DNA from: a virus
Taxonomy: Duplodnaviria > Caudoviricetes
Length of the DNA stretch: 53,560 bases
Direction: 5' to 3' (one strand)
IMG/VR virus record: IMGVR_UViG_3300007765_000007
Location: 1-53,560 of that record
The first letter of the stretch is position 1; each line of letters begins with the position of its first letter. This document shows positions 7,837 to 48,338 of this stretch, piece after piece. The notes under the pieces are model-generated. The model had not been told where the DNA came from. It did not search any database and saw only the letters and a list, made by a program, of their open reading frames with translations. The translations under genes were made by a program, and so were the position numbers.

Positions 7837-7844
7837 ATAAATAT
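7837..7844 (-). promoter_or_regulatory. ATATTTAT motif, putative late promoter
   Basis: Lies in the 15-nt spacer, 4 nt upstream of the ATG at 7832. No RBS is visible. Confidence 0.5.
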
Positions 7845-7847
7845 ATA

Positions 7848-8129: not shown

Positions 8130-8385
8130 TGTGTTCTCCTTTACTTGGTAAATCTATACCAACTTCGTTACAAATTTCTTCTAATGATAAATATCCAGTT
8201 CTATCATGTTCATCTAAATCCATCAATTTTTCTAATATCATTCTATACACTCTCGTTACTTTATCTGTATCTTCATTATTAACCTTCATGTGATACTCAG
8301 CAGCAACATTACCTAATTGGGAAACCATTTCCATTAATTCAATTATTACACTTTCAGGCAGTATCAAGTTCCTTTGATTCTTCAT
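8104..8385 (-). CDS. Hypothetical protein
   Basis: Fills the gap between its neighbours with short overlaps. Confidence 0.6.
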   Translation of the reverse strand: MKNQRNLILPESVIIELMEMVSQLGNVAAEYHMKVNNEDTDKVTRVYRMILEKLMDLDEHDRTGYLSLEEICNEVGIDLPSKGEHNGNHRLDS

Positions 8386-11900: not shown

Positions 11901-12099
11901 CAACATTTTTTTTAATTATTCTGAATTTTAACGCGGGTCTCCCATTGATGAGTAAATCACCCTTTTCATTCCAATCAATAGATTTAACTACAACGGGCTT
12001 GTTTTTGAATCTACCCATTTTAACAGTATCACCAATCTCAATTGGTAAGTCTATACCTTCTAATAGTGGTTTGGTTAGCCATTTTGTTAATTGGGTCAT
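8917..12099 (-). CDS. Multidomain protein: cytidylyltransferase-like domain plus conserved T4-like C-terminal domain (DUF6267-like)
   Basis: GIYGGRFQPFGPHH (HIGH-superfamily-like), FGKKDAGRL, VSGTTMR. The C-terminal domain has GGAYGHMSHPFD, TEKLDGQN, SEGIVF and YKFTGSFAPINQ. Confidence 0.75.
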   Translation of the reverse strand: MTQLTKWLTKPLLEGIDLPIEIGDTVKMGRFKNKPVVVKSIDWNEKGDLLINGRPALKFRIIKKNVEEEFGAPAGVIPSPSAKGRKKWKKKLRQQRTEEILKEIDISPTHIEMLRTMYASVKGINPSGSAYKNLIDYLDNMTIRNLQKLSRAKIKWLSPLAKNRLKFSENVNERAKQAVSGRKVHRYITGFNLKHKGRKYKEIDFELVKIDNKTDMVTLKILAPKKFFGQKVPVKFRTLRRGPFMKTDTSKKMENLEKTIDLYMENVVYSISEKGDFTSNVIEDKTKIKKIVGIYGGRFQPFGPHHLKTFKWLQSKVDVAYITTSDIKKPPRHPMNYTEKVRHMVKMGVPANRIIKEKVPYVASNTLKKFDKDTTAVVYIFGKKDAGRLAGGKKKSGGKTYYQDFKKNKGNLEPAWKHGYILTAPHISMNVGGKEVSGTTMRDILGHPKLNDSQREKLFKKLFGYYNKGVYQMMTNKFKKLYEFYHKPDIKNIIKEVSALGHHFSAAILDDEGLYDFFNSFDDYKRVSPKHADILGWEVIGDIVNYKRATDPAYDFQYVADRVDTVTFGKTINQKTSNEDSVDNPYPKYRAHMTNMANKLGWEIVKFFGKPTAKVKDSTTFDMKDITKGVEKIKKLQEQIDITKDTKELLLMGGAYGHMSHPFDDNNLTFSDLKQIIIDGLGGTLDREDGVTEKLDGQNLMVSWVDGKLRAARNKGHLKNHGKTAPTTSGIKSMFSGRGEIEKAFVGAMKNLEKAIGSLSDKQKEKVFGNGSKWMNLEVMYPKTANVVDYDVAEIVFHGTLEYDESGKPIGQPKDSARMLAGMIKQMNQHIQSMFKIGKPNFLTVPKHQNFNKMKNKFLGQLKKLQSQYGLKDNDRLGEYHEAWWREYVFNASKQFKVSLKPNQFVSLVNRWAFFDKSYKVRDIKKDYKDNPKFLDWILSTDKMDHQKIFKQNIKPFEVLFFGVGAEILKNIQGYMAASPKQSVQKMRKEVISAMKDLQKPGNIDKLKKLKIQIEKLNAIGGLDAIVPSEGIVFKYKGKVYKFTGSFAPINQILGTLKFG

Positions 12100-12250: not shown

Positions 12251-12565
12251 TTATCTCGGTGGTTTTGATTCCCAAGGCCCCCAATGTGCACTTTTAACCA
12301 TTAATTTTGCTGCCTCTAAATATTTGTATTTATAAAGTGGATATCCTTTAACTGGTATTCCACCCAATTCATAATACCTTTTTTTAGATATTTTAATTTT
12401 ATTATCATTACTAAAATCTAATACCGTATTTCCCTTTTCAATCCAACAATGTCCAAATGGTTTCCCATCTCTCGCCATAATAGCAACTCCATGAACCAAT
12501 CGATAAGAATTATCCTTACCAATCATCCACCTACCATTTGCTGCGTAACAATCACCTTTAGGCAT
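12251..12565 (-). CDS. Small papain/transglutaminase-fold-like protein
   Basis: GDCY...LVHG...GHCWIE...VLD gives a candidate Cys-His-Asp triad. Confidence 0.55.
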   Translation of the reverse strand: MPKGDCYAANGRWMIGKDNSYRLVHGVAIMARDGKPFGHCWIEKGNTVLDFSNDNKIKISKKRYYELGGIPVKGYPLYKYKYLEAAKLMVKSAHWGPWESKPPR

Positions 12566-13047
12566 TATACTGACAACGCTCTCTTAAACCAACCAAACAA
12601 AAACTTCTCTTGTTCAGGTTTCTTATTTACTAAATCGTAGTAATGTTTCATTCTGTAACATCTTACTCTATCTAATGATGGTTTATATGTATCGAGTGCA
12701 CTTTTTGTACCTGGACCAAATCCACCATCAACTGCTAAATCAGCACCTTTACCATTACATGCTCGTTGTAAAATTCTTACGGCAGTTCCTCTACCTTGAT
12801 TCACACACATATCAAAAAAGATATGTTTTAAATCATCAGATAAATCATCTACCTTATTCTTATCCCAATAATCTCTTTTATAGATTTCTTTAGCACCTTC
12901 TTTAGTTAAATTCTTTATATCTACATCGGGATAGAATCTACCCGCGATACCAAAATTAGTCTCTCCACCTAAATCTTTTGGGTCGTGAACATAACCGCCT
13001 TCATGATGTAAAGTTACTTCTATAATTTCATCGAATGTAGTTAACAT
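12565..13047 (-). CDS. Endolysin, glycoside hydrolase family 108 with peptidoglycan-binding domain
   Basis: HEGGYVHDPKDLGGETNFGI, FDMCVNQG, VDGGFGPGT, FLFGWFKR. Start moved to ATG 13047, which has an AGGAG RBS. Confidence 0.9.
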   Translation of the reverse strand: MLTTFDEIIEVTLHHEGGYVHDPKDLGGETNFGIAGRFYPDVDIKNLTKEGAKEIYKRDYWDKNKVDDLSDDLKHIFFDMCVNQGRGTAVRILQRACNGKGADLAVDGGFGPGTKSALDTYKPSLDRVRCYRMKHYYDLVNKKPEQEKFLFGWFKRALSV

Positions 13048-13048
13048 T

Positions 13049-13783
13049 TTATTTTCTCCTAAGTAGTTTTTGTTTACTAACCCATAATCTTCCGATTTGG
13101 TTTTTGATGGGTTGGTTAACAAACTTTCTAACAACTTTAGTAACCAATGGAACAAATTTTGCCTCCGCTTGTTTTTCGTCTAAATGAACTGAATTGTCAA
13201 TTATCACGAAATTGTTTTTAAATAATGATTGGAAAGCACCAAGATTCTTCTGTACATCTTTCCAACTCTTCTCTAATAAATCTTCTGGTAAAACTCTATC
13301 TCTCAACTTGTTTCTTTTTTGTGCCACCTCTAATGATGTGTTTACCATACACATATAGGTATCATATCCCTCTGCTTCTAACTCTTTTTTCATAGAGTGT
13401 ATCTTACCAAAGTGATGTCCTGTACCATCTATAACCATTCCTAACTTACCTTGTCGATATAATTTCATTCTTTGTTTGGTAAGTGATTTTGAATACTTTC
13501 TCAATCCACTTGCATCTGGCCCATCACCTGTTAAGTTCTGAAATACTTCATCTGGCATCTTATCTAACTCTGTACCAAATCCGTATTTGTTTAATAAGTG
13601 TTTTAACTCTTTATCAGAATTAACCATTTTCATACCACTCATTGCTATATTAAATTTATCTGGAATACCAAATAGATTTTTTGCAATATAAGTTTTACCA
13701 CTTCCTGGACCACCTGCAAGAAATACTGCTTTGAATATACCTTTGTCTTGTACACCCTCAATAATATTTTGTAATTTAATCAT
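13049..13783 (-). CDS. Zeta-toxin-like / AAA_33 P-loop kinase
   Basis: AVFLAGGPGSGKT, VNSD, VIDGTG, AQKRNKLRDR. Confidence 0.8.
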   Translation of the reverse strand: MIKLQNIIEGVQDKGIFKAVFLAGGPGSGKTYIAKNLFGIPDKFNIAMSGMKMVNSDKELKHLLNKYGFGTELDKMPDEVFQNLTGDGPDASGLRKYSKSLTKQRMKLYRQGKLGMVIDGTGHHFGKIHSMKKELEAEGYDTYMCMVNTSLEVAQKRNKLRDRVLPEDLLEKSWKDVQKNLGAFQSLFKNNFVIIDNSVHLDEKQAEAKFVPLVTKVVRKFVNQPIKNQIGRLWVSKQKLLRRK

Positions 13784-13810: not shown

Positions 13811-13818
13811 ATAAATAT
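13811..13818 (-). promoter_or_regulatory. ATATTTAT motif, putative late promoter
   Basis: Lies in the 39-nt spacer upstream of the kinase-endolysin unit. Confidence 0.55.
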
Positions 13819-33492: not shown

Positions 33493-34925
33493 AATTTCAT
33501 CTCCAAACTTCTATGATAAAAATCAGCTAACTCAGGAAATGTTTTACAAAAATCTGTTCCTCTTCGTTTGTCATGTTCTTTAAAAAACTTACCAAAATTA
33601 AATCTATGTTCTTTAACTTGTTGTTCTTTACCTTCCCAGTTTGCAATTCTCCAATCATATATTCTTTTAATTTTTTGTATCTCAATATCTGAATACCCAA
33701 CATAATTATGATCAAACAATGGTACTCCATAATAATCAACCAACTGAGCATGTTTCAATATGTAAGAATTCCACTCATCAGGTAATACTTGAACGGTTTG
33801 GTGTGTTGGATATCGTAAATAACTTGAATCCAAAAATACTGCAGATTTCCAATATCTATCTGCTGAACCAAACTTTGTTTTTAAATCATACATACCTTTA
33901 ATTAATTTATGATAATTTGGAACTGAAAGTGCATTGTAAGTTGCCATATTAGTTACATTTACTTTAGAAGAACTTTCCAAAATTCTATTTACATTATCCC
34001 AGAAATAATTAAAATCTAATCCATGTCTAATATATTCTGCTTGTTCTCCCCAAGACTCAACTGAAGTAAACACAATAAATTCTCTAACTCTTTCTTCATC
34101 TTCTATTCTTTTAATCTTATCAATAAATTTATCAATCAATACTTTCGGACCTCCCAAATTAGTATTTACAGCAAATTGTAAATTTTTATTTGGATTAGGA
34201 TGGTCTATAATGTAATCCAATACTTTAAAAGTATCGTTTGCTAATAATGGTTCTCCGCCTGTTATTCTAAATGTGTGTAAATCTTGATACAAATCAGGCC
34301 ACCATTTCCAAAATGCCTCTTTATAAGGATTTGTCTCACGATGTGGAATGGGCATTTTATCTTCAATTTTATTATACTTAAAATCATTAAAGTGATCAGT
34401 TGTTGGATAACCACCATGTTGTTCTATCTCTTGAAACCACTCTGAAGAATAAGCAGGTGCACAATAACTACATTTAAAATTACAAGCGTTTGAAAATGCA
34501 ACCTCTACATATCTTGGATTAAAATCTTCTCTCCAATCTAATTTTTTTATCTCATCATAATGTGGTAATGACCAACTCTCTTGTGATTTAAAAACTCTAT
34601 CAGAAAATCTATCTGAATTATCTTCTACATTCCAACAATAATCACACTCTTTAGGTCTTCCACCCTGTAGCATTTCTTTTCGTCTTTTCTTTTTAAATAT
34701 AGTATTGTGTAGAGCACTCGGATTTCTCTTTAATTCCTCTAAAGGAATTTTATGTGTTTTTGGATGGTGGCAACTATGAGTGTGCCCTGTTTGTAATTGT
34801 ATTGTAACTTGAGTCCACTTTGCTAAACACATCCCACATCCAATATCATCAAGTTTCTTTTTTGTTTTTACAAAATGTTGATTTTCTATTGAAAGTTCAT
34901 TTTTTTCTTTGACTGCTTCTGACAC
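33489..34925 (-). CDS. Radical SAM protein with N-terminal Twitch-like Cys cluster
   Basis: CLAKW...SCHH...CDYCW, CNFKCSYC, TGGEPL, NTNLG. Confidence 0.9.
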   Translation of the reverse strand: MSEAVKEKNELSIENQHFVKTKKKLDDIGCGMCLAKWTQVTIQLQTGHTHSCHHPKTHKIPLEELKRNPSALHNTIFKKKRRKEMLQGGRPKECDYCWNVEDNSDRFSDRVFKSQESWSLPHYDEIKKLDWREDFNPRYVEVAFSNACNFKCSYCAPAYSSEWFQEIEQHGGYPTTDHFNDFKYNKIEDKMPIPHRETNPYKEAFWKWWPDLYQDLHTFRITGGEPLLANDTFKVLDYIIDHPNPNKNLQFAVNTNLGGPKVLIDKFIDKIKRIEDEERVREFIVFTSVESWGEQAEYIRHGLDFNYFWDNVNRILESSSKVNVTNMATYNALSVPNYHKLIKGMYDLKTKFGSADRYWKSAVFLDSSYLRYPTHQTVQVLPDEWNSYILKHAQLVDYYGVPLFDHNYVGYSDIEIQKIKRIYDWRIANWEGKEQQVKEHRFNFGKFFKEHDKRRGTDFCKTFPELADFYHRSLEMKL

Positions 34926-36346
34926 TAAAACCTCACATTAATTAACTTATGTCTATTATAAATATCATCTTTAGATACTATTTTGTATTTCATTTCACTT
35001 AACCCATTTTCTTCTATATTAACTTTTTCTTTTTGCATTTCTTTCTTATAAAATATTTCATTTACAGAAGTTTGTTCAGGGTCTCCTGCAAAACTCTGAT
35101 TAACTATTCCCTCATCATCATGATACATACATTCCATTGTTCCATATCTTCTATCGGGTGTAATTGTTTTTGCTATCTGTACATTATCTTTGGTAATTCT
35201 TCCGTTACCAAGTATTAATTCACCATGATTTTCATTACCACTTAAATCTAATAATGTATCTCTTCTCCAAGACTTACTCATATCATAATGTAATACTAAT
35301 TCTTTTCTATCATTCCACATCTTTATAGAATACATCTTACCTTTAAATGGACGATTTCTATCTCTCATTGGATCATATTTATTTGGTGGATTCTTACCAA
35401 TATAAAATGGTGTTGTTCCATACCGTTTCAATTTTCCCTCAAATGGTAATACCGATTTTTGGGGGCCAAATTTCTCATCATACAACTCATCATTAATAGT
35501 AATTGTTCTCTCTTGTGTTCGTGTATCAACTTTGAAATTAACTTTACTCCATTGATTTGGATATCTCATCATCCAACCATAATTTAATTCATTTTTAACT
35601 CCCCATAAACAATAAGAAAATGCTTTAGAGTTATTATACGATATATCGAAATCCCAACCTTTTCTGGATACTATTGGATATTTTAAATGTCCTACTTCAT
35701 TACCAATTAAAAATTCTTTATCTTCACTTTCTATTTCTGAATGTACAATTGCTTCTATCTCACAAGATTTATTTGGTATGTTCATTATACTATTTGAAAT
35801 TGGAACTTTAATATGGGTTTCCTCACCATCAAATTGTAAAACTTTTGTATTTCCTGGTGATTCAATATATTCTGATTTAAAATATCCTTTTCTTATACAT
35901 CTCCAAAACAAATCATCATCTTCAAATCCCCAACCCCAATAATCTGCTGAATATCCGTTAACTTTTTCAAATTGTTCTATAGTGAATAAAACTACTCCAC
36001 CAAAATAATGTATATCTCTTAATGTATTATCCCATTGTGATAACCAAGTTGCAATATGTTTAGGTGTATCACCAGGATGAGAATAATCACAATCATCTTG
36101 TGGTAACATATCTACATCGTGAAATGCCACATAATCACATCCATCTTCTTTAGCAGCAAGAAATGCAACATTCTTCGTACCACTTCGGTTAAACTTCTTT
36201 TCATCAACTTGGTGTCCTATGTACACTCTGAAGTCTATATTCCTATCGCCAAGGAACTTTTCTAAATGTGGTACTAATGTATCTAAGTGTTTCTTTCTTA
36301 CACCATCTCCATTATCTCTATATGGAATACAAACTCCTAACTTCAT
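34925..36346 (-). CDS. GT7 (beta-1,4-galactosyltransferase-like) with inserted LamG domain
   Basis: IPYRD, FNRS, FHDVDMLP, YFGGV, VNGYS..YWGWGFEDDDL, then LamG (DLSGNENHG), then the GT7 tail NGLSEMKY. Confidence 0.88.
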   Translation of the reverse strand: MKLGVCIPYRDNGDGVRKKHLDTLVPHLEKFLGDRNIDFRVYIGHQVDEKKFNRSGTKNVAFLAAKEDGCDYVAFHDVDMLPQDDCDYSHPGDTPKHIATWLSQWDNTLRDIHYFGGVVLFTIEQFEKVNGYSADYWGWGFEDDDLFWRCIRKGYFKSEYIESPGNTKVLQFDGEETHIKVPISNSIMNIPNKSCEIEAIVHSEIESEDKEFLIGNEVGHLKYPIVSRKGWDFDISYNNSKAFSYCLWGVKNELNYGWMMRYPNQWSKVNFKVDTRTQERTITINDELYDEKFGPQKSVLPFEGKLKRYGTTPFYIGKNPPNKYDPMRDRNRPFKGKMYSIKMWNDRKELVLHYDMSKSWRRDTLLDLSGNENHGELILGNGRITKDNVQIAKTITPDRRYGTMECMYHDDEGIVNQSFAGDPEQTSVNEIFYKKEMQKEKVNIEENGLSEMKYKIVSKDDIYNRHKLINVRF

Positions 36347-38394: not shown

Positions 38395-39356
38395 ATAATC
38401 CCCAAATGTTTTAATACCGATGTTTGTTGTTTATATGCCCATTCATGAAATGATATTGGTTTTTCTTTCCATTTCATTTTATCTAAATCATAGTAATTGT
38501 GTTTCATCTTATTTGCAAGTGGAAAAGAAGCACCATAGATATAAGAAAATTCTAAAACTTTATTATCCATAATATCAAATTTAATATTTGGTGCATTTAA
38601 TTTTTTTTGAATAGTAATTAATTTCTGAATAAATTCATCTGAAAAATCTGTAGGTTCTATATCTTTTACTAAAGGTTTTTCTCCTCTTCCCACCCAATGT
38701 TCTTTATTGATATTTTTTATATGTGGGAATGAATTTGGTTCTTCAAAATATGTATTAGTTTTTTGTTTGAAACCATACAATTGATTATCAGATATAAAGA
38801 TTTGATATTCATATTCTACCTCTATGTAATCTTGTACTAAACATGGAAAGAAGTCTTCCCAATTATAACATTCTGAAATAAATTTTTGTATATCTTTTAA
38901 ATGTTCTGGTTTCCACATAAAAAAAGAACTTTCAGTACCAGCACCATATGTTGATTTTACTACTTTATTTAATGGAAAGGTCTGTATTAACCCTTTTATA
39001 TTATTACAAACCACACTCGGTGCATGTATATCGAATTTTTTTAATAACTCATATTGTCTTACTTTATTATCATAGTAATAATATGATTTTTTATTTGGCC
39101 ACATTTTTTCACCATAATGATTATATAATTTATCAAAACATTTAGAGTGAAGTTTTTTATCAGGTAAAGCATGTGCGAATCTACCTATATAGAATTCACC
39201 ATCATAATTTTCATAATCTATTAATTTATAACTTATATTTTTTGATTTAAATAAATCTTCAAACTTTTCACAATAGAATTTATTTAATGTATTTTGTTGT
39301 TTATTTAAACCATCTGGTATATGATAAATTGAATTATCTTTATGTAATGCAACCAT
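38391..39356 (-). CDS. ATP-grasp ligase-like protein (RimK-like)
   Basis: DNKVRQY, VVKSTYGAG, LVQDYI, KFD...VLE. Confidence 0.65.
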   Translation of the reverse strand: MVALHKDNSIYHIPDGLNKQQNTLNKFYCEKFEDLFKSKNISYKLIDYENYDGEFYIGRFAHALPDKKLHSKCFDKLYNHYGEKMWPNKKSYYYYDNKVRQYELLKKFDIHAPSVVCNNIKGLIQTFPLNKVVKSTYGAGTESSFFMWKPEHLKDIQKFISECYNWEDFFPCLVQDYIEVEYEYQIFISDNQLYGFKQKTNTYFEEPNSFPHIKNINKEHWVGRGEKPLVKDIEPTDFSDEFIQKLITIQKKLNAPNIKFDIMDNKVLEFSYIYGASFPLANKMKHNYYDLDKMKWKEKPISFHEWAYKQQTSVLKHLGII

Positions 39357-40288
39357 TAACCCTCGACTAAAATATTATTCACAAAATGATATCCTGCTAA
39401 TGTGTGTGGATGAACTACATCTACATCTGATTCAAGTGATTTAATTTCTTCTATCTTAACAATAGGTTTTCTTGTAAATCCATTATCATTTACAATAAGT
39501 TCATCACCTACTTGTAGGGCTCCTAAATTATCTTCTAATATTGCACCATCTCGATAAAATGGAATTAAGTGAGTAGATGTATATAATATATGATTATCAT
39601 CCGTTGATATTTTTAAAATTATTCCACCAGTATTATTCCCTGTCATTATAGAAGTAACTTGTGTATATATTATTTCTTCTGTATCTATCAATGCAGATTT
39701 TATGATATCTCCCACTTTAACTATTGAAATATCAATTTCTCCACTTTGTTCTTGTACTTTCATCTCAATTAATTCTTCAGTTCCACCAATAACAGCAGAA
39801 CTATTATGTGTTACTATATCATCCGCAATAATTGTTTCGTAATCTTGGTTTACTAAATTGTAAGTTTCGTGTTCTCCTTCGATATGAATTATATTCACAA
39901 CCTCTATCCAAGTAGAATCAATATCATTTACATAATCACCAACTTCAAGTTTTCCACTACCACCAGCATGATTTGGATTATGTCCATCTATTGTAACCCA
40001 ATCTTTATTTCTTTCAATAAAAGGATGGTTACCTGTTGGATACAAAATTTTTCCATTTTCTAAATGTAATTCATAAACATCATCATGTAATACTTTTTTG
40101 ATTTCATTTACTTTACCATTTCTGATTTCATCATACTCTTCATCCCAAACTAAAACCGAATCGTTTAGGTTTATTTCAGAAATTGGTTTCAATGTACCAT
40201 CTGACATATTTATTAATTGTTTTGGCAAAAAACAATCTGGGTTTACCATTTTAAATTTTGTATCAGTTTTCCAAATTAATTTTTTCAT
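39356..40288 (-). CDS. Tandem Hint-domain protein (mini-intein followed by a second Hint fold)
   Basis: CFLPKQLINMSDG...PTGNHPF...TYNL...IVTHN-S, then SAVIGGT...VKVGD...TSTH...LQVGD...HFVNNILVEG. Confidence 0.85.
   Translation of the reverse strand: MKKLIWKTDTKFKMVNPDCFLPKQLINMSDGTLKPISEINLNDSVLVWDEEYDEIRNGKVNEIKKVLHDDVYELHLENGKILYPTGNHPFIERNKDWVTIDGHNPNHAGGSGKLEVGDYVNDIDSTWIEVVNIIHIEGEHETYNLVNQDYETIIADDIVTHNSSAVIGGTEELIEMKVQEQSGEIDISIVKVGDIIKSALIDTEEIIYTQVTSIMTGNNTGGIILKISTDDNHILYTSTHLIPFYRDGAILEDNLGALQVGDELIVNDNGFTRKPIVKIEEIKSLESDVDVVHPHTLAGYHFVNNILVEG
39803..40234 (-). other. Mini-intein/Hint domain (144 aa, Cys19-Asn162) followed by Ser
   Basis: All canonical splicing residues are present: Cys1, block B TxxH, terminal His-Asn and Ser+1. 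No endonuclease domain. Confidence 0.8.
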
Positions 40289-40305
40289 AGTTTTCTCCTA
40301 TATTT

Positions 40306-40313
40306 ATAAATAT
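40306..40313 (-). promoter_or_regulatory. ATATTTAT motif within the palindrome ATATTTATAAATAT (40300-40313), putative promoter of the long modification operon
   Basis: Sits directly upstream of the AGGAG RBS of the tandem-Hint gene. Confidence 0.55.
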
Positions 40314-41740
40314 CATAAATCCAAGTTTACAGATAAAAATATATAATTATTATCTTCCGTTTTTGATATTGTTTTATACTTTAATGTAGTTAATCCATCA
40401 GAAATTAGATTGGATTTATTATTTAGAATTTGATCATAATATCTGATTTGATTTAATCTTGTTGATTCGTATTTCCATCCACCTTGACCATAACCTTCTT
40501 CATTGTGTTCCATCATTTCAAATGTAGAATCTCTTCTTGCAGGTAATGATATTTTCTGTTGTTCTAATTCATTATGAAGTCTTGGTATACAATTATATAT
40601 AGTACCATAAATTCTTGGATGAACTAAATCCATAACACTTCCTTTAGAATAATCATATGAATTATTAAATTTAGAATGTTTAAAATCGTAATATATTTTT
40701 AAATTATTAGAACTACTATATTGATTATCATCATTTAAAAAACTCATACCAGAATTTTGATACAATCCTTGAATTTCATTTCTCTGTAATGTTTTATCCC
40801 AATAGGCAAAATCACTTACATATCCACGAAAACTTTTTCTATCATCTTCTCTTTCAACTGATGCTATACCAATATAGAAATTTTCTTGACCAGAATTAAA
40901 TATTTTTCTTGTTATTATTTTATTTCCAACCAACTTACCATCTTGATACATTTTTAACCTACGATTTGATTTATCATAAGTTACGGTAATTTTTGTTAAT
41001 CTTGGATAACTATAATCGGAAGTGATTTGATGACACTCTTTACCAATATCCCAACACTCAAATTTATAACGATTAAATGAATTATAACATATCGTTGTAT
41101 CCCAACCTGGAATACTAAATACGCAATATTCATCAAACGACTTATCATAATCAGGAATTATTTCATCTGGTTTAAAAGTACAATGAATAGTAAAATCTTC
41201 ATGAATATTAATTGTATTTTTACATTCTATATAACTTTCATCTCCATGTATATATAAACCTGAAGTATTTTCTTTTGGTATTTCATAAATATCAAAATCA
41301 GTAAATACATTTTGTTCAGTTAACCGTAAAAGTAAATCATCATCTTCAAATCCCCAGCCCCAATATTCATTTGAGTATCCATTTACTCGTTTGAATAATT
41401 CAACTGGAAATAAAGTTACTCCACCAAAGTATGTATCAAATACTTCTCTTTTGGAATTGGTAAAGTTTGTTGCAAGATGTAATGGAACTTCTGAATAAGA
41501 ATAATCCACATCAATTGGCAGCATATCAACATCGTGAAACGCAACATAATCACATTGTTTTCTTAATGCGGTTTTAAAACCAATATTTAATAATTTACCT
41601 CGATTAAAAGGCAAATCATCATTTTGTTCAACTACAATTAAATCATAATCATAGTCTTTTAAATACTCTGATATAGATTCACGAAACTTTCGAAGATGTG
41701 TTGGCCTGTTACGATACGGGACAATTACACCAAGTTTCAT
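40313..41740 (-). CDS. GT7 (beta-1,4-galactosyltransferase-like) with inserted LamG domain
   Basis: VPYRNR, FNRGKLLNIGF, FHDVDMLP, YWGWGFEDDDL, LamG segment, GT7 tail DGLTTLKY. Paralog of 34925..36346. Confidence 0.9.
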   Translation of the reverse strand: MKLGVIVPYRNRPTHLRKFRESISEYLKDYDYDLIVVEQNDDLPFNRGKLLNIGFKTALRKQCDYVAFHDVDMLPIDVDYSYSEVPLHLATNFTNSKREVFDTYFGGVTLFPVELFKRVNGYSNEYWGWGFEDDDLLLRLTEQNVFTDFDIYEIPKENTSGLYIHGDESYIECKNTINIHEDFTIHCTFKPDEIIPDYDKSFDEYCVFSIPGWDTTICYNSFNRYKFECWDIGKECHQITSDYSYPRLTKITVTYDKSNRRLKMYQDGKLVGNKIITRKIFNSGQENFYIGIASVEREDDRKSFRGYVSDFAYWDKTLQRNEIQGLYQNSGMSFLNDDNQYSSSNNLKIYYDFKHSKFNNSYDYSKGSVMDLVHPRIYGTIYNCIPRLHNELEQQKISLPARRDSTFEMMEHNEEGYGQGGWKYESTRLNQIRYYDQILNNKSNLISDGLTTLKYKTISKTEDNNYIFLSVNLDL

Positions 41741-41940
41741 TATTTTTTCTCTTTTTCTTCTACATATTTAGAGTAATACTCTGCTAAATACCATTGAAGT
41801 CTATCACTCCACTCAGTTTTCTCGATTTCTTCGAACCAAATCGTTAGAGCATCTAAAACATTAGCAATCTTTTCTAATGCTTTTACTTTTCGCTCTTCTA
41901 AGAGTAGTGAATCATCTGGTGTTTTTGCTTTAGTAGCCAT
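41740..41940 (-). CDS. Small hypothetical protein
   Basis: AAGGAG RBS, TAATG coupling to the GT7 gene. Confidence 0.7.
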   Translation of the reverse strand: MATKAKTPDDSLLLEERKVKALEKIANVLDALTIWFEEIEKTEWSDRLQWYLAEYYSKYVEEKEKK

Positions 41941-41972
41941 ATTATAACTCCTTATTGTTATATAACTTTATA

Positions 41973-41980
41973 ATAAATAT
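41973..41980 (-). promoter_or_regulatory. ATATTTAT motif, putative late promoter
   Basis: Lies in the 42-nt spacer upstream of 41940. Confidence 0.55.
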
Positions 41981-41982
41981 CA

Positions 41983-42831
41983 TCATAAATCCTTAATCTT
42001 CAATATTTTTTTAGTAAGAATTTTCCATTTTCTATACTGTGAATAATTTGGTGTTTCTATTCTTTCAAACATAAATTCTCTTTCATTTAAATCAATTGTA
42101 TAATCTCTATCTTTAATTGATTTTAACATTTTTTTATATTCATGTGCAAATGTATAATTTGCCATTGATTTACTGACTTCTTTCAATCTCTGTAATACCG
42201 TATAATCCCATTTAAAATGATGTACTTGTGTAAAATTCTTTTCTACTGGATACCTTAATGGATGTGATTTTCCCCATGAAGTTTTTCCTCTTCCCAAATC
42301 AATAAAATGTTGTCCTGGAACTACATTGTGTTTTCCTTTTAATAATGTAACTTTATTTGCTTCTGCTCTACTCAATGGATAACGAAAGAATCCAGCGTTT
42401 GGCATTTCTTTCCATACATTACTTTCTTTTGTAATCACTGGAAACTCTCCATCTTCACCAATTCTATCAAGAAATCCACCTGTTACAAATTCCCAATTAT
42501 TTTCTTCACACTCATCTATAATTTCTTCTATTGGTTTAGAATATAATTGTAATTCATCATCATCTGCAACTATCCACCAATCATCTGGTTTTAAAGATGT
42601 GGTTTCATTATAGTGTGATGTAACCTTATGCCAATTGAATGGTTCTTCTATTGCAACTTTATATGGTTTTAAATTAAATTCATCCAATATAGAAGTTGTC
42701 TCTTCTATAATTGGATCATTCCACCATGTGGCATAAATTATTACAAAAAAATCATTGACAATTGGTTTATAATGTTGTAACATATGATGTAACATTGTGG
42801 TATTGTGGCCACATACCGTAACTAAATTCAT
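41983..42831 (-). CDS. GT2-like glycosyltransferase
   Basis: HMLQHY, DWWIVADDDEL, PGQH, VHHFKW. Confidence 0.7.
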   Translation of the reverse strand: MNLVTVCGHNTTMLHHMLQHYKPIVNDFFVIIYATWWNDPIIEETTSILDEFNLKPYKVAIEEPFNWHKVTSHYNETTSLKPDDWWIVADDDELQLYSKPIEEIIDECEENNWEFVTGGFLDRIGEDGEFPVITKESNVWKEMPNAGFFRYPLSRAEANKVTLLKGKHNVVPGQHFIDLGRGKTSWGKSHPLRYPVEKNFTQVHHFKWDYTVLQRLKEVSKSMANYTFAHEYKKMLKSIKDRDYTIDLNEREFMFERIETPNYSQYRKWKILTKKILKIKDL

Positions 42832-43553
42832 TTTTTCCTCACTATTGTTAATCCTGTAGAACTTGGGAAATCTTTTCGAATTCCATGATTAAAAAAATTA
42901 ATAACTTCAAATTTATCTTTATCTATAGTTTCAATAAATTGACTCGGCCCATTTAAAGTATCACCTTTATGGCCTTCAATTTCTACGAAATTATCCACAT
43001 AATTTTTATCTGTATCGTGTATTGTAATAATACCATTTGGCATCAATTTTTCTGAATACAATTCAAAATCCTTTTCCACTCCCTCTAAAGTGTGGTCAGC
43101 ATCTATATGAATTAAATCAAACCAAATATCTTGTTTTACAAAATGATTATAGTATGCCTCTTCCGTAGTTTCTTTTATAAACTTTGGTGTAAAATGTTTT
43201 CTAAATAAACTATTTTTATCTTCCCAATCAACCTCACCATTAAAACCATTACACGCATCAACCACATAAGTTGTTCCACTATCACCCCATTCCATTTGAA
43301 TATCTTTATAAAATCCCTCTTGTGCTAAATCATATCTAGCTTGACTCATTATTCTCGGAATATATCCACCACCACTTCCTAAACAAACTAATGTTTTTAA
43401 TTTAAAAAAATTAATTAAAGTGTAAATGATTAAACCATCACCGAGATGCATCCATGTTGCGCCATGAGTCCAACGATAAGGTACTTCATCTTCACCTGCA
43501 TTCGTTGTTATATAATTTTTTATATAATCATAATTTAATATTGAATCTTCCAT
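42828..43553 (-). CDS. Class I SAM-dependent methyltransferase (Methyltransf_24-like)
   Basis: LVCLGSGGG, DLIHIDADHTLEGVEKDF, GIITIHDT. Confidence 0.85.
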   Translation of the reverse strand: MEDSILNYDYIKNYITTNAGEDEVPYRWTHGATWMHLGDGLIIYTLINFFKLKTLVCLGSGGGYIPRIMSQARYDLAQEGFYKDIQMEWGDSGTTYVVDACNGFNGEVDWEDKNSLFRKHFTPKFIKETTEEAYYNHFVKQDIWFDLIHIDADHTLEGVEKDFELYSEKLMPNGIITIHDTDKNYVDNFVEIEGHKGDTLNGPSQFIETIDKDKFEVINFFNHGIRKDFPSSTGLTIVRKK

Positions 43554-43571
43554 AAAACCTTTATATTATTA

Positions 43572-44609
43572 TTAGAATGGATTCGAATTACTTCCTTTAT
43601 TATGTACCAAAAATGTTTTACCAAAATAAACATCCAATGGTTCTACATCAATCTGTACTACTTCGTATCCCTCATCATTATCAATTAAATTTTCTAATGA
43701 TGTAATCTCAACTTCATTTCCATTCTTATCCATTACATGAGCACCAACTTTCATATTTGGAACTAATTGCCACATCCAAGTATTTTCATTTATTGGTTTA
43801 TATAACATTTCATGTTCACCTGTAATTTTTTCCATTCCATCATTTATATTCCAATAATTATATGCAAAATCAAAATTAATATCTTGAACACTTGCTGAAT
43901 GTTGTGTAAATGTTTCTGTTTTCTCATCAGCAAATCTACAACTTCTCCAATCATCATTATCCTCATCAAGTTGTCCTGGCATATTCATGGACATAACCCA
44001 ATCACCTATTTCTAAATCTTCTACAAGTTTAGTAGTACCATCTGCCATTTCAATTGGTGTTCCCTCTAATAAACAACTTGGTGAACCACCATAACTATCA
44101 ACAACCGTTACTGACTTAGTTAAATTAGAATTATAATTTGTTGCGTGATCATTATATCCATCTGATTGTCCGTCTTCAAGAAATTTACCAGTTAAAGTAA
44201 CACTTGCATTATTTGTTCCTGCTGCAAACCAATCACTATCATCACCTGTACCAGTATTTGCATTTGATATTGCACCTGCAGTTAATGTACAAGTATAATC
44301 ACCTGCTACTGAAGTAACTCCACTATTTTCACTCCAAGCAAAATTTGCATCTCTATTTGCAATCTTACTTAAAAATAAACTTCCATTATTTGAAAAATTC
44401 ATCGTATAGGTTTCTGCAGTTTGTTCCCATAAATAAGTATATCCTGTAACACTATCTACAGAACTTATTGAAAAATCCGACATTTTAGTTTGACTTGAAC
44501 CATCATTTTGAGCACCCAAAGAAGTATTGGTAGTCGTATATGAATCAGTTCCATCTACTGCTCTCTTTAATTTTCCTAATGATAAGTTTTGTCCTGATGC
44601 TGTTGACAT
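43572..44609 (-). CDS. Putative virion fibre-tip protein with C-terminal Hint domain
   Basis: Ser/Thr/Asn-rich N-region with LSLGKL...KMSDF. Hint at 44075-43599: CLLEGTPIEMADG...TGEH...FLVHN, then KGSNSNPF. Confidence 0.8.
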   Translation of the reverse strand: MSTASGQNLSLGKLKRAVDGTDSYTTTNTSLGAQNDGSSQTKMSDFSISSVDSVTGYTYLWEQTAETYTMNFSNNGSLFLSKIANRDANFAWSENSGVTSVAGDYTCTLTAGAISNANTGTGDDSDWFAAGTNNASVTLTGKFLEDGQSDGYNDHATNYNSNLTKSVTVVDSYGGSPSCLLEGTPIEMADGTTKLVEDLEIGDWVMSMNMPGQLDEDNDDWRSCRFADEKTETFTQHSASVQDINFDFAYNYWNINDGMEKITGEHEMLYKPINENTWMWQLVPNMKVGAHVMDKNGNEVEITSLENLIDNDEGYEVVQIDVEPLDVYFGKTFLVHNKGSNSNPF

Positions 44610-44633
44610 TTTTTTTCCTATATTAATTCAATA

Positions 44634-44641
44634 ATAAATAT
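44634..44641 (-). promoter_or_regulatory. ATATTTAT motif, putative late promoter
   Basis: Lies in the 31-nt spacer upstream of the Hint protein gene. Confidence 0.55.
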
Positions 44642-45804
44642 CAATTGTTGTAAAGTTTTAACATTTTTTCTATCCATTCTTCTTTATTGTCGAATTTATT
44701 AGTTAAATATTCTCTAAGTGGCCATAATAAGTTTCTTCTACCATCAAGTGATACTTCACATAACTTATTATATTGTTCTCTAAACTCTATAGGATTAGAA
44801 GCTCTAAATGGATATTCATATTCTGTTAACCAATCACCTGCTAATATTGGAACTTTACCATAATCTATTGCCTGAAATATACTATATCCAAATGGTTCAA
44901 CAATATGAGCAGAATGACTTATACCCCAATCTCTATGATAAAATCTATCTATATTATCATACTTGAATGTAAATATTTTCCACTTTGAAGTATCAGTTCC
45001 TATATTTCTTCTCCACCATTTAACATCTTTCGGGTCTGTAAAAAACTCACTATCAATACCTGCAAGAAAATGTGGACATTTACGAGTTTCACATCGAGAA
45101 GCAAATCCTACCGTATTATTATCTGTAACATCATAATTATGTTTAAATTCATAAAAATTTGGTATATGTAATATTTTATCATTATGTTCATTATCTAAGT
45201 TAGGTTTATCCACACCAATCCAAAATGAATTTTTAGCATATCCTACTATTTCAGTTTCCCAATTAGGCGACATAGCAAAATTGAACCCAGTTTTTAAACC
45301 TAAAAGAAATGGTGCTTTTAAAGCACTACTAACATTACAATGAACGGCATTTGTATATATCTTATCTTTATTATCTCTTATATATCTATGTGGATGATAG
45401 TAACCATGTAGTATATGTATTCTACGAGCCCCATTTAAAATCTCACCAAACTCTTCTGGATCATCACCTTGCCAATAATGTTTTAATTCTGTTTTTAAAA
45501 CATCTTTATAAGTTCGTTTCTTTTTATCAAAAGTTTCCTTAAAAGTACTTTTTAAATTTTTATGAACTTGTCTACCATTATTTCCTGATTCACCTCTATC
45601 AACTCTTTTTTTAAAATCTTTGTGTTGTTCTTCAGTCCAGTCAACTATAGGTTTGTTTCTATGTATCATTAATTTTGGAACAACTTTAAGTTTTGGTGCA
45701 ATCTCTTCTATCCAATGATTCACCCAAACATCAGCACCACCACCAACTAAACTTCCACCTCCTGTGGAATAGTATACATCGTATTCTTTATTTGTCGTGG
45801 ACAT
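44641..45804 (-). CDS. GT-B fold glycosyltransferase (GT4-like)
   Basis: GGADVWV near the N-terminus, GFASR..RK, EPFGYSIFQAIDYGKVPI. Start adjusted to ATG 45804. Confidence 0.75.
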   Translation of the reverse strand: MSTTNKEYDVYYSTGGGSLVGGGADVWVNHWIEEIAPKLKVVPKLMIHRNKPIVDWTEEQHKDFKKRVDRGESGNNGRQVHKNLKSTFKETFDKKKRTYKDVLKTELKHYWQGDDPEEFGEILNGARRIHILHGYYHPHRYIRDNKDKIYTNAVHCNVSSALKAPFLLGLKTGFNFAMSPNWETEIVGYAKNSFWIGVDKPNLDNEHNDKILHIPNFYEFKHNYDVTDNNTVGFASRCETRKCPHFLAGIDSEFFTDPKDVKWWRRNIGTDTSKWKIFTFKYDNIDRFYHRDWGISHSAHIVEPFGYSIFQAIDYGKVPILAGDWLTEYEYPFRASNPIEFREQYNKLCEVSLDGRRNLLWPLREYLTNKFDNKEEWIEKMLKLYNN

Positions 45805-47104
45805 TATGTACCAATACTCCCCCTGCAAAATAAACATCATTTGGTTCAACATTTAAATTTACCGTTTCTAATTCTTCTTCTATCTTTTCTATACTTGTTA
45901 TTGTTTCAAAAACAAAACTACCAGATGTATCAGTAAGAATTTCATCTCCAGGAATTAATTCTTCTGTCTTTTTAAATTCATACTTATTATTATGTTTTAT
46001 AAAAAATGGATGTTCAAATGTAACTTTTATTCTGTCATTAATTTTATAATATTCATCATACCAATCAAACGTAATATCAGTTAATTTAGTAGTTGTATAT
46101 TCTGCCCCATCAAGTGTATCAGTTTCCCAATCTACCCAAGTATCTTTATCATCAAAATCTAATGGCATAGTTGGTAAAGTTAATGTTAATACCTCTTCAC
46201 CAATACTTAAATCTTCTATTCTTTTCGTATAACCATCTGCCATAGTTATCGGTGTATCTACTGAAAAACATCCACTTCCACCATATGCATCAATCGTAGA
46301 ACTAAAGAATTCATCAAACCTAATCGGGTGTGGAGAATCAGTTGCATAAAGTGGGCCTACTCCATACCAATCAAAATTCTTTTTCGATGCTCTTGCAACA
46401 GTATTGAATGCTTGATATAAATCATGAATATCATTATTTCCTTGAGAATCCCCATTTTCAGTTCTAATTGAATCTACATCTATATTATTAGCATAACCAA
46501 TTGTAGGAACTATTAGTGAACCTGATCCTGGGCCCGCAAGAGTAATTGTAGTATATGATCCAGGAGTTCTTATTTCACTTCTCTGTACATTATATACTGA
46601 AGCACCATTTGGAGCTGCAGGATATGAACCAGCAGCAATAGTATATTGTCCAGATGATGAAACTTCTGGTGGAAATGTTCTCCATCCAGTTACTCCACTA
46701 AAATAAGATGGGCCTCCACCTGTTTGTGATGTATAAGTTAAAACTTGTAAATATCCCCATCCATCATAAAAACAAAATTTATTATTAGTAGTGGTTACTG
46801 ATGCATTAGTATATACTGTAGTAGCACCATAATTAACAGCCTGTGGATATGTTGTACTATAAAGAGTAGTTATTGCTGAACCAATTGGTTCATATGACCA
46901 ACTACCACTTGAATAATTTGCTCCACCTGCAGTAACACTAACACCAGTTAATTTACCATCTGGATTGGATGTCCAAGTACCTGTAAATCCACTTCCTTGT
47001 CCTGGATCACTTGCAGTTAAAGGTCCAGATGTATCCGTAGCATATCCATCACCTCCTTCAAGAAGAGTTAATCCCGTTATACTGAATCCACTATTTAGAG
47101 CCAT
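45788..47104 (-). CDS. Putative virion fibre/adhesin protein with C-terminal Hint domain
   Basis: Gly/Ser/Thr-rich N-region. Hint at 46270-45803: CFSVDTPITMADG...TFEHPF...VLVHN, then VHDK. Confidence 0.82.
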   Translation of the reverse strand: MALNSGFSITGLTLLEGGDGYATDTSGPLTASDPGQGSGFTGTWTSNPDGKLTGVSVTAGGANYSSGSWSYEPIGSAITTLYSTTYPQAVNYGATTVYTNASVTTTNNKFCFYDGWGYLQVLTYTSQTGGGPSYFSGVTGWRTFPPEVSSSGQYTIAAGSYPAAPNGASVYNVQRSEIRTPGSYTTITLAGPGSGSLIVPTIGYANNIDVDSIRTENGDSQGNNDIHDLYQAFNTVARASKKNFDWYGVGPLYATDSPHPIRFDEFFSSTIDAYGGSGCFSVDTPITMADGYTKRIEDLSIGEEVLTLTLPTMPLDFDDKDTWVDWETDTLDGAEYTTTKLTDITFDWYDEYYKINDRIKVTFEHPFFIKHNNKYEFKKTEELIPGDEILTDTSGSFVFETITSIEKIEEELETVNLNVEPNDVYFAGGVLVHNVHDK

Positions 47105-47519
47105 TTTCCAACTCTTCCACTCGTTTGGTTAATTCTTTAATACTCTCAACCAACAAAGGTACAACTTTTTCATATGCAATTGCCTTAATACCATCTGGTC
47201 TCAACACAACTACTTCAGGTAAAACCTTTTCAACTTCTTGTGCAATCAATCCTACATCATGTCCTTTATCTTGTTGAATCTTACTTGACTTTTCATTCCA
47301 ATCAAATGTAACTCCGTTAATTTGTTGAACTTTAAAAAGGGCACTTTCTATTGGTCTGATATTATCTTTAAGATTTATATCTGAACTATAGTATGCAGTA
47401 ATATTATTTGTACAATATATTTGTCCAGTTACCTTTAATTCTATTGAAGGATTACCTGTAGCTCCAATATGTACATTTTCACTTGTTTCTAAGTAACTCC
47501 CTTGATCTGTAAACGCCAT
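47091..47519 (-). CDS. Peptidase S74 intramolecular-chaperone domain protein
   Basis: ITAYYS-SDINLKDNI, GVTFDW, VGLIAQEVEKVLPEVV, LLVESIKELTKRVEELE. Confidence 0.9.
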   Translation of the reverse strand: MAFTDQGSYLETSENVHIGATGNPSIELKVTGQIYCTNNITAYYSSDINLKDNIRPIESALFKVQQINGVTFDWNEKSSKIQQDKGHDVGLIAQEVEKVLPEVVVLRPDGIKAIAYEKVVPLLVESIKELTKRVEELENGSK

Positions 47520-47531: not shown

Positions 47532-48338
47532 TTAAATTTGTATGTGGATACTTGATCCATCACCACCTGTCTGTGCACCTCCTGTTGTTCCAGCATCTGG
47601 AGCATCTGCATCATTCGTACCAGATCCACCATCTGCACCAACAGTTCCTGTAACAGTAATTGTTCCTACACTGGACGAAGTTGTAATTATTACTACAGCA
47701 CCACCAGAACCACCTCCTCCGCCTCCGCCAGCACCACTATAATATTCTTCCGGATCAATTGTCATTGCCCCTGATCCACCATCACCACCATCAGCTGATG
47801 TTGATGTTACGATACAATTATTAACAGTTGCATCTACACTTGAATCATACATCTGTGGATGAACATCTGCGCCAGATCCTGCATTTGGTGTCCATCCCTG
47901 CTGAGCGGTTACTCCTGTTGCATCCGAAGAAACTGCACCACCACCGCCTCCGCCTCCTGCGGATCCGCATACTTTTAATCGTACGGCAGTATCTGATGCG
48001 TCCATAACATCTCTCATCATTATAACAAGATGGGGATCAATTACCTCTAATCGAGATACTGCACTTGCTCCACTACCTGCACCACCTGCACCTCCAGGTG
48101 ATCCATATGCTGGAGCCATTCTAAACATAGTGTTTGATATCCATCGTGGTGGTTTAATTTCTGTATTATCATCTCTAATACAATCTATATGTACTTTATA
48201 TTTTTCATCAAACAAAATATTCTTATCTATAGAGATAACTTCTCGTGTTTCTATTTTTTGTTTTTGATTATCAATAGTAATACTTTTAGGTATTATTTTA
48301 CCGTTACCGTATACTTCTCCTCTGTCTCTTTTAATCAT
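47532..48338 (-). CDS. Glycine-rich tail-associated protein
   Basis: GGGGGGSGGAVVII motif shared with the C-terminus of the upstream giant protein. AGGAG RBS. Confidence 0.7.
   Translation of the reverse strand: MIKRDRGEVYGNGKIIPKSITIDNQKQKIETREVISIDKNILFDEKYKVHIDCIRDDNTEIKPPRWISNTMFRMAPAYGSPGGAGGAGSGASAVSRLEVIDPHLVIMMRDVMDASDTAVRLKVCGSAGGGGGGGAVSSDATGVTAQQGWTPNAGSGADVHPQMYDSSVDATVNNCIVTSTSADGGDGGSGAMTIDPEEYYSGAGGGGGGGSGGAVVIITTSSSVGTITVTGTVGADGGSGTNDADAPDAGTTGGAQTGGDGSSIHIQI

Follow-up and report, generated by a model that had tools for sequence, protein, structure and literature searches.

A C-terminal Hint domain on tail-module proteins is paired with a GT-B glycosyltransferase in marine T4-like phages

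Self-cleaving C-terminal modules decide the folding and maturation of phage receptor-binding proteins. The module of this kind known so far is the S74 chaperone, and a thioester-forming Hint domain of the bacterial intein-like (BIL) kind would be a second, chemically different module in the same position. We examined such domains on two neighboring proteins, HintA and HintB, encoded in the IMG/VR virus record IMGVR_UViG_3300007765_000007 (Duplodnaviria; Caudoviricetes). The window analyzed is the whole record, 53,560 bases with an estimated completeness of 34%, and all of its genes lie on the minus strand. A preliminary description of this window had proposed that Hint-bearing virion proteins are interleaved with glycosylation enzymes, each Hint gene being directly followed by a modifying enzyme, and that the proteins are ligated at their C-termini to a glycan, a small molecule or a partner protein.

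BIL/Hint autoprocessing is itself known, as are the 'intein domain' labels on tail proteins in GenBank. Type-A BILs were reportedly studied by Amitai (2003), Dassa (2004) and Aranko (2013), as cited in a review. In these domains His-Asn is present and a +1 nucleophile is missing, cleavage products are dominant, and some splicing takes place via the freed alpha-amine (PMC4031507). The Hint domains of HintA and HintB fit this definition: they are mini-Hints of approximately 156-159 residues with Cys1, TxxH and His-Asn, without Cys, Ser or Thr at +1 and without an endonuclease, and their activity is putative. Unlike type-A BILs described previously, they are found on phage tail-module proteins adjoining a GT-B gene (a glycosyltransferase of the GT-B fold), HintB carries an invariant +1 Lys, and the domain is located either at the extreme C-terminus with a tail of 4-8 residues or, in relatives, before a fibronectin type III (Fn3)-like domain. 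A canonical class-1 intein was rejected, as the +1 residue is Val or Lys and the exteins are joined in none of the 84 N-domain matches described below.

The top structural match is BIL2 from the BUBL1 polyubiquitin locus of Tetrahymena thermophila (6tmm / 6y75; Z 19.5, Foldseek E 4.5e-8). In both cases two small domains flank the Hint and a downstream lysine is implicated; however, the N-extein is not ubiquitin-like in our model and sequence identity is only 20-26%. BIL2 forms an isopeptide bond with Lys and delivers a ubiquitin-like domain to its substrates in an ATP-independent manner (PMC8616854), and it provides a precedent for Hint-driven conjugation. The Hedgehog autoprocessing domain (1at0; Z 16.3) is also a C-terminal Hint that frees an N-terminal functional domain via a thioester. 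In Hedgehog the Hint is followed by a sterol-recognition region and a functional His-Asn is lacking, whereas in our proteins His-Asn is conserved and no adduct-recognition region was found C-terminal to the Hint: only 4 (HintA) and 8 (HintB) residues follow the Asn, and relatives have an Fn3/Ig-like domain there. The S74 chaperone is likewise a self-removing C-terminal fiber module, and related fibers end in S74 (loci L096 and L043 of our comparison) or in a Hint (L018, L023 and L072). Its fold and chemistry are unrelated, a Ser-Lys autopeptidase as opposed to a Cys thioester with Asn cyclization, and the S74 domain of the window is encoded by a separate gene.

Among phages in sequence collections, Phage NCTB (LT598654) and Erwinia phage pEa_SNUABM_5 (MW366843) encode tail proteins annotated with C-terminal intein domains within tail-fiber modules. 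These share with HintA and HintB a Gly-rich or small -1 region, Cys1, TxxH, His-Asn and a tail of 7-10 residues; their N-domains differ, the Erwinia phage protein has Thr at +1, and no glycosyltransferase (GT) is annotated nearby or detected by Pfam in 10 neighboring proteins. To our knowledge, no Hint domain is involved in virion glycosylation by mycobacteriophages. In that system virion proteins are decorated by phage-encoded GTs (Freeman et al. 2023, as cited in PMC12619734), whose genes adjoin structural genes as they do here, where the target of the GT-B enzyme is putative. Within a literature search whose scope excluded most subscription journals and supplementary files, we found no paper that reports tail proteins of phages with a C-terminal Hint, and none that reports a Hint paired with a glycosyltransferase. 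The new features reported here are the fixed GT-B/HintB pair, the invariant +1 Lys, the Fn3-like C-exteins, the independence of the pair from a sugar island, and Hint-less homologues that end at the junction.

We scanned IMG/VR with a GT-B alignment and obtained at least 583 relatives, the best 80 of which are covered by our analyses. A HintB homologue is encoded directly after GT-B in all 80 loci by tblastn and in 79 by hidden Markov model, the remaining one being cut by the contig end; the gap between the two genes is estimated at no more than 36 nt in 74 of 79 loci. Clustering of the HintB proteins of the 80 loci gives 57 groups at 90% identity and 9 groups at 50%, and the flanks vary among loci while the pair is constant. 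The pair was also found in all 15 assessable metagenome loci and in three of four contigs from metagenome-assembled genomes (MAGs), with the Hint ORF (open reading frame) one gene off in the fourth. In uncultured phage LR756508 (484 kb), a 432-aa protein with a C-terminal Hint is encoded 71 nt upstream of GT-B. Thus the pairing is widespread, and the co-occurrence profiling suggested in the preliminary description was positive for one enzyme: a Hint-bearing gene is located beside every GT-B relative examined, but the large island of GT and radical S-adenosylmethionine (SAM) genes is not linked to Hint. In 55 of the 80 loci we detected nothing else from the window's island (52 of those have 3 kb or more of flank downstream), and in L039 and L043 the order is a fiber ending in S74, a short fiber, GT-B, HintB, tail sheath, tail tube and baseplate. 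We therefore assign the pair to the tail module and regard the sugar island as a lineage-specific addition. By hhalign, the HintA profile showed no similarity to the proteins without a Hint that are encoded upstream of GT-B in these two loci. In L018, L023 and L072 a fiber of 1723-1750 aa itself ends in a Hint (HN/AGK..., the slash marking the junction) immediately before GT-B, so that fibers of this group end in either S74 or Hint.

A locus search with HintA as a single protein returned no loci, and an alignment-based search returned 11, all of which share the order S74, HintA, GT-B, HintB, methyltransferase. Extra ORFs are present between HintA and GT-B in three of the 10 loci inspected (two ORFs inserted beside HintA in L006 and L009 are weakly GT9-like) and between HintB and the methyltransferase in six; the radical SAM gene of the 11 loci is located differently from that of the window. 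Because of these extra ORFs, and because the tandem Hint gene of the window is missing from related loci, the rule that a modifying enzyme directly follows each Hint gene is not the conserved feature; the succession of GT-B and HintB is.

When HintA, HintB and GT-B were compared by tblastn with 50,697 phage records, the only matches were Phage NCTB, Erwinia phage pEa_SNUABM_5 and uncultured LR756508, and no cultured phage in that collection has the pair. A GT-B scan of 185,579 species genomes gave four matches, all of them short MAG contigs resembling phage DNA. L119 and L121 (MAG 'Flavobacteriales bacterium NAT55') and L120 and L122 (Pelagibacter MAGs) carry the GT-B/HintB cassette, with identities of 78%, 62%, 42% and 38%. 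These contigs are probably phage DNA binned with its host, and the binning hints that the hosts are Flavobacteriia for the window's lineage and Pelagibacter for a distant lineage.

We conducted domain analysis of the three proteins and structure modeling of HintA and GT-B (Table 1). HintA reads ...YGGSG/C...T-F-E-H...V-H-N/VHDK and HintB reads ...YGGSPS/C...T-G-E-H...V-H-N/KGSNSNPF, and the two N-terminal junctions named in the preliminary description are exact in the translations. The HintA alignment comprises 25 relatives (43-78% identity to the query) plus HintB; in these 26 sequences Cys1, the block-B Thr and His and the terminal His-Asn show no variation, and the tail keeps the pattern V-H-x-K at 90% or more. 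The +1 residue of HintA is Val, which is not a nucleophile employed by inteins. In the AlphaFold2 (AF2) model of HintA (predicted local distance difference test, pLDDT, 72.6), residues 272-438 match 24 BIL, intein or Hedgehog chains with VIA Z scores of 19.5-14, and Foldseek gives 61 matches at E<=0.001. BIL2 (6tmm) aligns over 141 residues with a root-mean-square deviation of 1.7, followed by the Clostridium thermocellum BIL (2lwy; Z 18.4) and then by inteins and Hedgehog. Several Pfam Hint families match HintA and HintB, all sub-threshold; the best score is 25.6 bits against a gathering cut-off of 35.8 for HintA and 22.6 against 32.1 for HintB. HintA and HintB are divergent members of the Hint superfamily, an assignment that rests on fold and motifs.

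The Hint and the N-domain are conserved to a similar degree, at 59% and 52%, respectively, in HintA and at 40% and 44% in HintB. Both N-domains are rich in Ser and Thr (24.5% in HintA and 28.7% in HintB, compared to 12% for the window's proteins). The N-domain of HintA is modeled as a beta-sandwich with no ubiquitin-like match listed. We found no complete Hint-less HintA among the 25 aligned full-length sequences and six short ones read, out of 85 search matches; the six are truncated or chimeric. A comparison of the HintA N-domain with a representative library matched 21 clusters and no Hint-less full-length form.

Residues ~45-81 of HintA (46864-46972, …GKLTGVSVTAGGANYSSGSWSY…) resemble 13 and 10 repeats in giant proteins of 2914 and 1369 aa (P0216 and P0221), and its first ~107 residues occur joined to another fiber-like C-terminus in P0082. 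The N-terminus of HintA looks like a shuffled fiber module.

HintB relatives keep Cys, TxxH and His-Asn-Lys without exception in 17 sequences of 31-74% identity, and the +1 Lys (HN/K) is present in 78 of 78 readable junctions, 77 of which read HN/KG. In both proteins the catalytic residues of the Hint are intact and fixed, and the domains do not look like decaying inteins. Among the 78 readable relatives, 55 have an internal Hint with a C-extein of approximately 100 residues (at least 98 aa) behind it; 21-27 residues follow the Hint in three, and 9 or fewer in 20, HintB of the window included. Pfam analysis of 10 such C-exteins detected fn3 in five (once above the cut-off) and fn3 or another Ig-like domain in eight. 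The tail of the window's HintB is a remnant of the linker and Fn3-like C-extein found in most relatives. The HintB relatives of L003-L013 have an additional middle domain of ~150 residues, not found in HintB of the window, which may be a carbohydrate-binding-like beta-sandwich.

The GT-B ORF (403 aa) is listed at 44641-45852, and judging from its homologues translation probably starts at Met17 (45804). It has no Pfam, PHROG or NCBIfam match, and a profile search against PDB sequences gave zero matches. The AF2 model is of moderate quality (pLDDT 60; predicted template-modeling score 0.66); over residues 22-403 the top 50 of 50 VIA rows are GT-B enzymes (Z 8.3-12.5), and Foldseek gives weak matches to GT4 and GT41 enzymes. 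Since only GT-B enzymes match the model, the earlier 'GT4-like' call holds at the level of the fold. The motif EPFGYSIF(Q/E)A is presumably the EX7E motif of GT4, its second Glu being present in four of 11 aligned sequences, and the Atlas lead for this protein is AGT / Glycos_transf_1. A predicted complex of GT-B with HintB scored 0.39, 0.01 and 0.06 without controls and is evidence neither way.

Table 1. Features of the tail-module cassette and adjoining genes in the window
Feature	Position	Strand	Basis
Large fiber-like protein, 1704 aa	48366..53480	-	ORF; frame open to window end; no PHROG match
Gly-rich 268-aa protein	47532..48338	-	Translation; no family match; partial homologues in related loci
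Peptidase_S74 intramolecular chaperone, 142 aa, stand-alone	47091..47519	-	Pfam PF13884, E 2.5e-18
HintA, 438 aa	45788-47104	-	Hint fold and motifs
HintA N-domain, residues 1-278, ending ...YGGSG	46270..47104	-	Translation; AF2 model; beta-rich, S/T/G-rich
HintA Hint/BIL domain, residues 279-434: Cys279, T362-x-x-H365, H433-N434	45803..46269	-	Invariant columns, 26 sequences
HintA tail V-H-D-K after Asn	45791..45802	-	V, H, K >=90% conserved
GT-B fold glycosyltransferase	44641..45804	-	AF2/VIA, Foldseek, alignment with EPFGYSIF(Q/E)A motif
ATATTTAT promoter-like motif upstream of HintB	44634..44641	-	Motif scan
HintB, 345 aa	43572-44609	-	Alignment with HintA through all blocks; motifs
HintB N-domain, residues 1-178, ending ...SYGGSPS	44076..44609	-	Translation; N-domain profile
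HintB Hint/BIL domain, residues 179-337: Cys179, T263-x-x-H266, H336-N337	43599..44075	-	Invariant in two HintB alignments
HintB tail KGSNSNPF	43575..43598	-	+1 Lys invariant
SAM methyltransferase (Methyltransf_24)	42828..43553	-	Pfam
282-aa protein, candidate GT-A / GT2-like enzyme	41983..42831	-	Atlas lead only
GT7N + GT7C (beta-4-galactosyltransferase-like) plus LamG protein	40313..41740	-	Pfam
ATATTTAT upstream of tandem Hint	40306-40313	-	Motif scan
Free-standing tandem Hint protein, 310 aa	39356..40288	-	Pfam PF01079 32.8 vs 29.7; PT-HINT 28.7 vs 27.7
Second GT7 protein	34925-36346	-	Pfam; no LamG match

Homologues of the HintB N-domain were also found without a Hint. The N-domain profile matched 84 short proteins, of which 28 include the start of a Hint and most others are contig-end or frameshifted fragments. 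Ten Hint-less clusters are complete proteins of 158-173 aa that stop a few residues past a conserved ...YNT... block, and their endings (...YTGGA, ...HVGGA, ...ESGGGGS) fall exactly where the HintB N-extein meets Cys1. None of the 84 matches joins the N-domain directly to an Fn3-like domain. L096, L097 and L099 contain, in this order, a fiber with fused S74, a 90-aa ORF and the Hint-less protein, which in L096 and L097 is directly followed by homologues of window genes 12565-13155, 13049-13783, 8917-12099 and 8354-8908; L096 additionally holds the terminase, at 70% identity. No GT-B or other Hint gene is present in the 5-6 kb flanks of these three loci (L099 was scanned with the Hint, GT-B and N-domain profiles only), and no sugar island in the flanks of L096 and L097. 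The existence of such proteins suggests that a normal carboxyl terminus is enough for the N-domain to function, a point that weakens the idea of an adduct.

We favor, with about half of our confidence behind it, the reading that the Hint is a domesticated self-removing module on glycosylated tail proteins and is functionally tied to the GT-B enzyme. HintA and HintB would be tail-fiber-module proteins, as we infer from gene position for the 'fiber-tip' or virion role that the preliminary description gave them, and their C-terminal Hints would be domesticated autoprocessing modules similar to type-A BILs. After folding, Cys1 would carry out an N-S acyl shift at ...YGG(S)G/C or ...YGGSPS/C. The thioester would then be resolved mainly by water, freeing the S/T-rich N-domain as the mature product with its C-terminus at the YGG motif, and His-Asn cyclization would drop the short Lys-bearing tail, or the Fn3-like domain in most relatives. 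The GT-B enzyme would act on that protein as a dedicated partner, most likely glycosylating the precursor or the N-domain of it. For the Hint we propose the role of a self-removing module for maturation, timing or docking, in a position equivalent to that of the S74 chaperone of other fibers, and the sugar island, outside the Hint mechanism, would be an addition of this lineage that makes the glycan more diverse. Joint action of the pair, if it occurs, would connect autoprocessing with glycosylation of the virion in phages that are abundant in the ocean, with a bearing on host range and on evasion of virion recognition. A compact Hint that works with a +1 Lys and a tail of 4-8 residues is also a possible protein-engineering tag.

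Several observations weigh against this reading. His-Asn, the +1 Lys and the tail motif are strictly conserved even in short-tail forms; thus the chemistry of the C-terminal junction seems to matter, and plain hydrolysis at the N-terminal junction needs none of it. The joint absence of Hint and GT-B comprises three loci of one lineage, and since L096 and L099 are identical in the Hint-less protein it is possibly a single evolutionary event. In a second Hint-less lineage (L109 and L110) the protein is an extra paralogue next to an entire HintA-GT-B-HintB cassette, so absence of the Hint is not always accompanied by absence of GT-B. The divergence of the Hint sequences and their Pfam scores count here as well, and a fold search with the HintA N-domain gave weak matches (Z 5-7, below noise) to small beta domains from sheath, tail-tip and capsid proteins of phages. 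Since His-Asn, Lys and tail are conserved and GT-B and Hint travel together, we also consider lysine capture, BIL splicing and a docking role.

These features could belong to a two-part maturation system of marine myophages composed of GT-B and the Hint tail protein, a proposal that we regard as improbable. The thioester would be captured by the +1 Lys, by a Lys of a partner or by a sugar delivered by GT-B, or else the Hint would dock GT-B. Under capture, the receptor-binding domain would be covalently fixed or capped; under docking, a self-removing Hint would recruit GT-B in the manner of the leader of a ribosomally synthesized and post-translationally modified peptide. Either, if true, would be the first Hint-dependent route of protein conjugation or glycosylation in a virus. 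The general idea of an adduct or ligation put forward in the preliminary description seems unlikely to us.

Capture by lysine in the manner of BUBL would have the thioester attacked by a Lys epsilon-amine, either the +1 Lys in cis or the Lys of another virion protein in trans, and the N-domain would become covalently attached, through an isopeptide, to the Fn3 domain or tail or to the fiber. We consider this rather improbable, despite the rank of BIL2 as top structural match and its Lys isopeptide chemistry (PMC8616854). The +1 Lys in every readable HintB junction is consistent with it, and so is a Lys located 1-5 residues from the Asn in seven of nine tail types of the window's lineage (VHxK, AGKGGP, GKGE, AKD, EVGK, TFHDK, KG...); the remaining two types are ORFs without His-Asn that end in ...LVHSET and in ...YLCHQ / ...YLCRQ. 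Two NCTB tails have their Lys farther on, at +6 and +6/+7, and His-Asn and the tail are kept even after loss of the C-extein. However, the N-domains are not ubiquitin-like in the model, the short-tail Lys is weak evidence because Lys is common in this AT-rich genome, the Hint-less homologues function without any thioester, and the Erwinia phage tail has Thr at +1.

Splicing of the type-A BIL kind, in which the +1 alpha-amine attacks the thioester after Asn cyclization, would join the N-domain to the tail or Fn3-like domain by a peptide bond and give a mixture of spliced and cleaved products. This mechanism is known for type-A BILs, and cleavage products dominate there (both points according to PMC4031507). 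The architecture of N-domain, Hint, K-G linker and Fn3-like domain in 55 of 78 relatives would suit it, as would the conserved His-Asn and tail; yet no natural direct fusion of N-domain and Fn3-like domain occurs among the 84 matches and the C-extein is lost in 20 of 78 relatives with the Hint retained, and we judge splicing to be quite improbable.

The adduct proper, in which a glycan or small molecule made by GT-B or the island resolves the thioester and leaves an esterified or amidated C-terminus like that of Hedgehog with cholesterol, appears very improbable. It would account for the strict adjacency of a Hint-bearing gene and GT-B, for their joint absence in L096, L097 and L099, and for the additional GT-like ORFs beside HintA in L006 and L009. 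GT-B enzymes, however, transfer sugars to acceptors, and we know of none that presents a nucleophile to a thioester. The 4-8 residues or Fn3-like domain after the Hint offer no recognition region like that of Hedgehog, most loci (55 of 80) showed no further island gene, the homologues without a Hint simply stop at the junction with a plain C-terminus, and the Hint-ended tail proteins of NCTB and the Erwinia phage have no detected neighboring GT. Selfish or decaying inteins without host function, interleaved with enzymes through inherited gene order in a hypervariable region, were rejected as the least probable explanation: inteins are common in large phages, the order of tail-module genes is generally stable in T4-like phages and the absence of the tandem Hint (39356-40288) from the cassette of 11 related loci would fit a mobile element, but HintA and HintB have no homing endonuclease, a non-nucleophile at +1 and no intein-free allele with joined exteins among the matches inspected, their catalytic residues are invariant over 9 clusters at 50% identity, and the GT-B/HintB pair is constant amid variable flanks.

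The window represents part of the genome of a T4-like marine phage and encodes a large terminase and a portal. Its terminase shares 55% identity with the terminases of Microcystis phage Mel-JY01 and Flavobacterium phage immuto and ~34% with those of T4-like cyanophages, and megablast of the region against phage records gave no DNA-level match. Read on the minus strand from the fiber-like ORF, the order is the Gly-rich 268-aa protein, S74, HintA, GT-B, HintB, Methyltransf_24, the 282-aa protein, a 66-aa ORF, GT7N/GT7C with LamG, the 310-aa tandem Hint, a 321-aa ORF, GT32, GT31, a 283-aa ORF, the second GT7 protein and a radical SAM protein. The fiber-like protein (20.8% Ser and Thr) is homologous to ORFs of 1700-3000 aa that precede the cassette in related loci. 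The 142-aa S74 ORF scores 66.6 bits against a Pfam cut-off of 22, and its PHROG matches are tail-fiber C-termini. It is a separate gene: two in-frame TAA stops precede it, an AAGGAG sequence serves as a ribosome-binding site of its own, and it overlaps with the start of HintA, with just ~45 residues N-terminal to the S74 domain. The S74 domain is fused to the fiber in L096, L097 and L043 and separate in the window and in L003-L013; the 142-aa protein may act in trans or be a mini-fiber.

The gene list of the preliminary description, whose interval 39356-47519 covers just the first 10 of the 14 genes it named, was largely borne out. S74, HintA, HintB, the GT4-like protein, methyltransferase, 66-aa ORF, first GT7-LamG, tandem Hint, GT32 (Gly_transf_sug) and GT31 (Galactosyl_T), the last two detected downstream of the tandem Hint, are supported by the tools or the ORF call. 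The 321-aa 'ATP-grasp' and 283-aa 'GT8' ORFs have no supporting match in Pfam, PHROGs or NCBIfam, or by phmmer against PDB sequences. The 'GT2-like' 282-aa ORF has no Pfam, NCBIfam or PDB match, and the second 'GT7-LamG' is a GT7 protein without LamG. NCBIfam analysis of 10 unexplained ORFs matched only a twitch-domain radical SAM protein.

The sugar island is larger than the preliminary description indicated; it spans ~13200-44075 (~31 kb, about one fifth of the estimated genome) and encodes at least six GTs, an aminotransferase, a short-chain dehydrogenase, a nucleotidyltransferase, HAD hydrolases, two radical SAM/SPASM proteins, the twitch radical SAM protein and three DUF6071/GDSL-like proteins. 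Two close relatives, L096 and L097, lack it, and in them the Hint-less protein adjoins the homologue of 12565-13155.

The tandem Hint is the sole Hint protein of the window to pass the Pfam gathering cut-offs, and its family consists of free-standing proteins of 308-351 aa that are 44-92% identical to the window member. In Hint1 an N-extein of 18 residues precedes Cys1, and T-G-N-H and His-Asn are followed by a canonical Ser or Thr at +1; this Ser appears to double as residue 1 of Hint2, so that the two domains abut without an extein between them, and Hint2 ends ...VNN/ILVEG. No tandem Hint was found in the 11 loci of the HintA alignment, which places it outside the conserved cassette. In Phage NCTB a free-standing 153-aa Hint (L014 6744-7205) follows the Hint-ended tail protein.

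The motif ATATTTAT had been noted near two Hint genes, and it does precede HintB and the tandem Hint. The form (T/G)ATATTTAT lies 20-30 nt upstream of six minus-strand starts (3998-4005, 7837-7844, 13811-13818, 40306-40313, 41973-41980 and 44634-44641), non-Hint genes among them; a Hint-specific role was therefore rejected in favor of a general, promoter-like one, and the motif probably represents a promoter element of the phage. Its overall count in the window, 25 compared to 19.4 +/- 4.2 expected, is not enriched; of its 19 minus-strand copies, six fall within the ~1 kb of intergenic DNA upstream of starts and 13 in the other ~52 kb. Elsewhere in the window, the 521-nt gap between called genes at 7833-8353, read on the minus strand, holds an apparent small Lys/Glu-rich ORF below the 100-aa cut-off.

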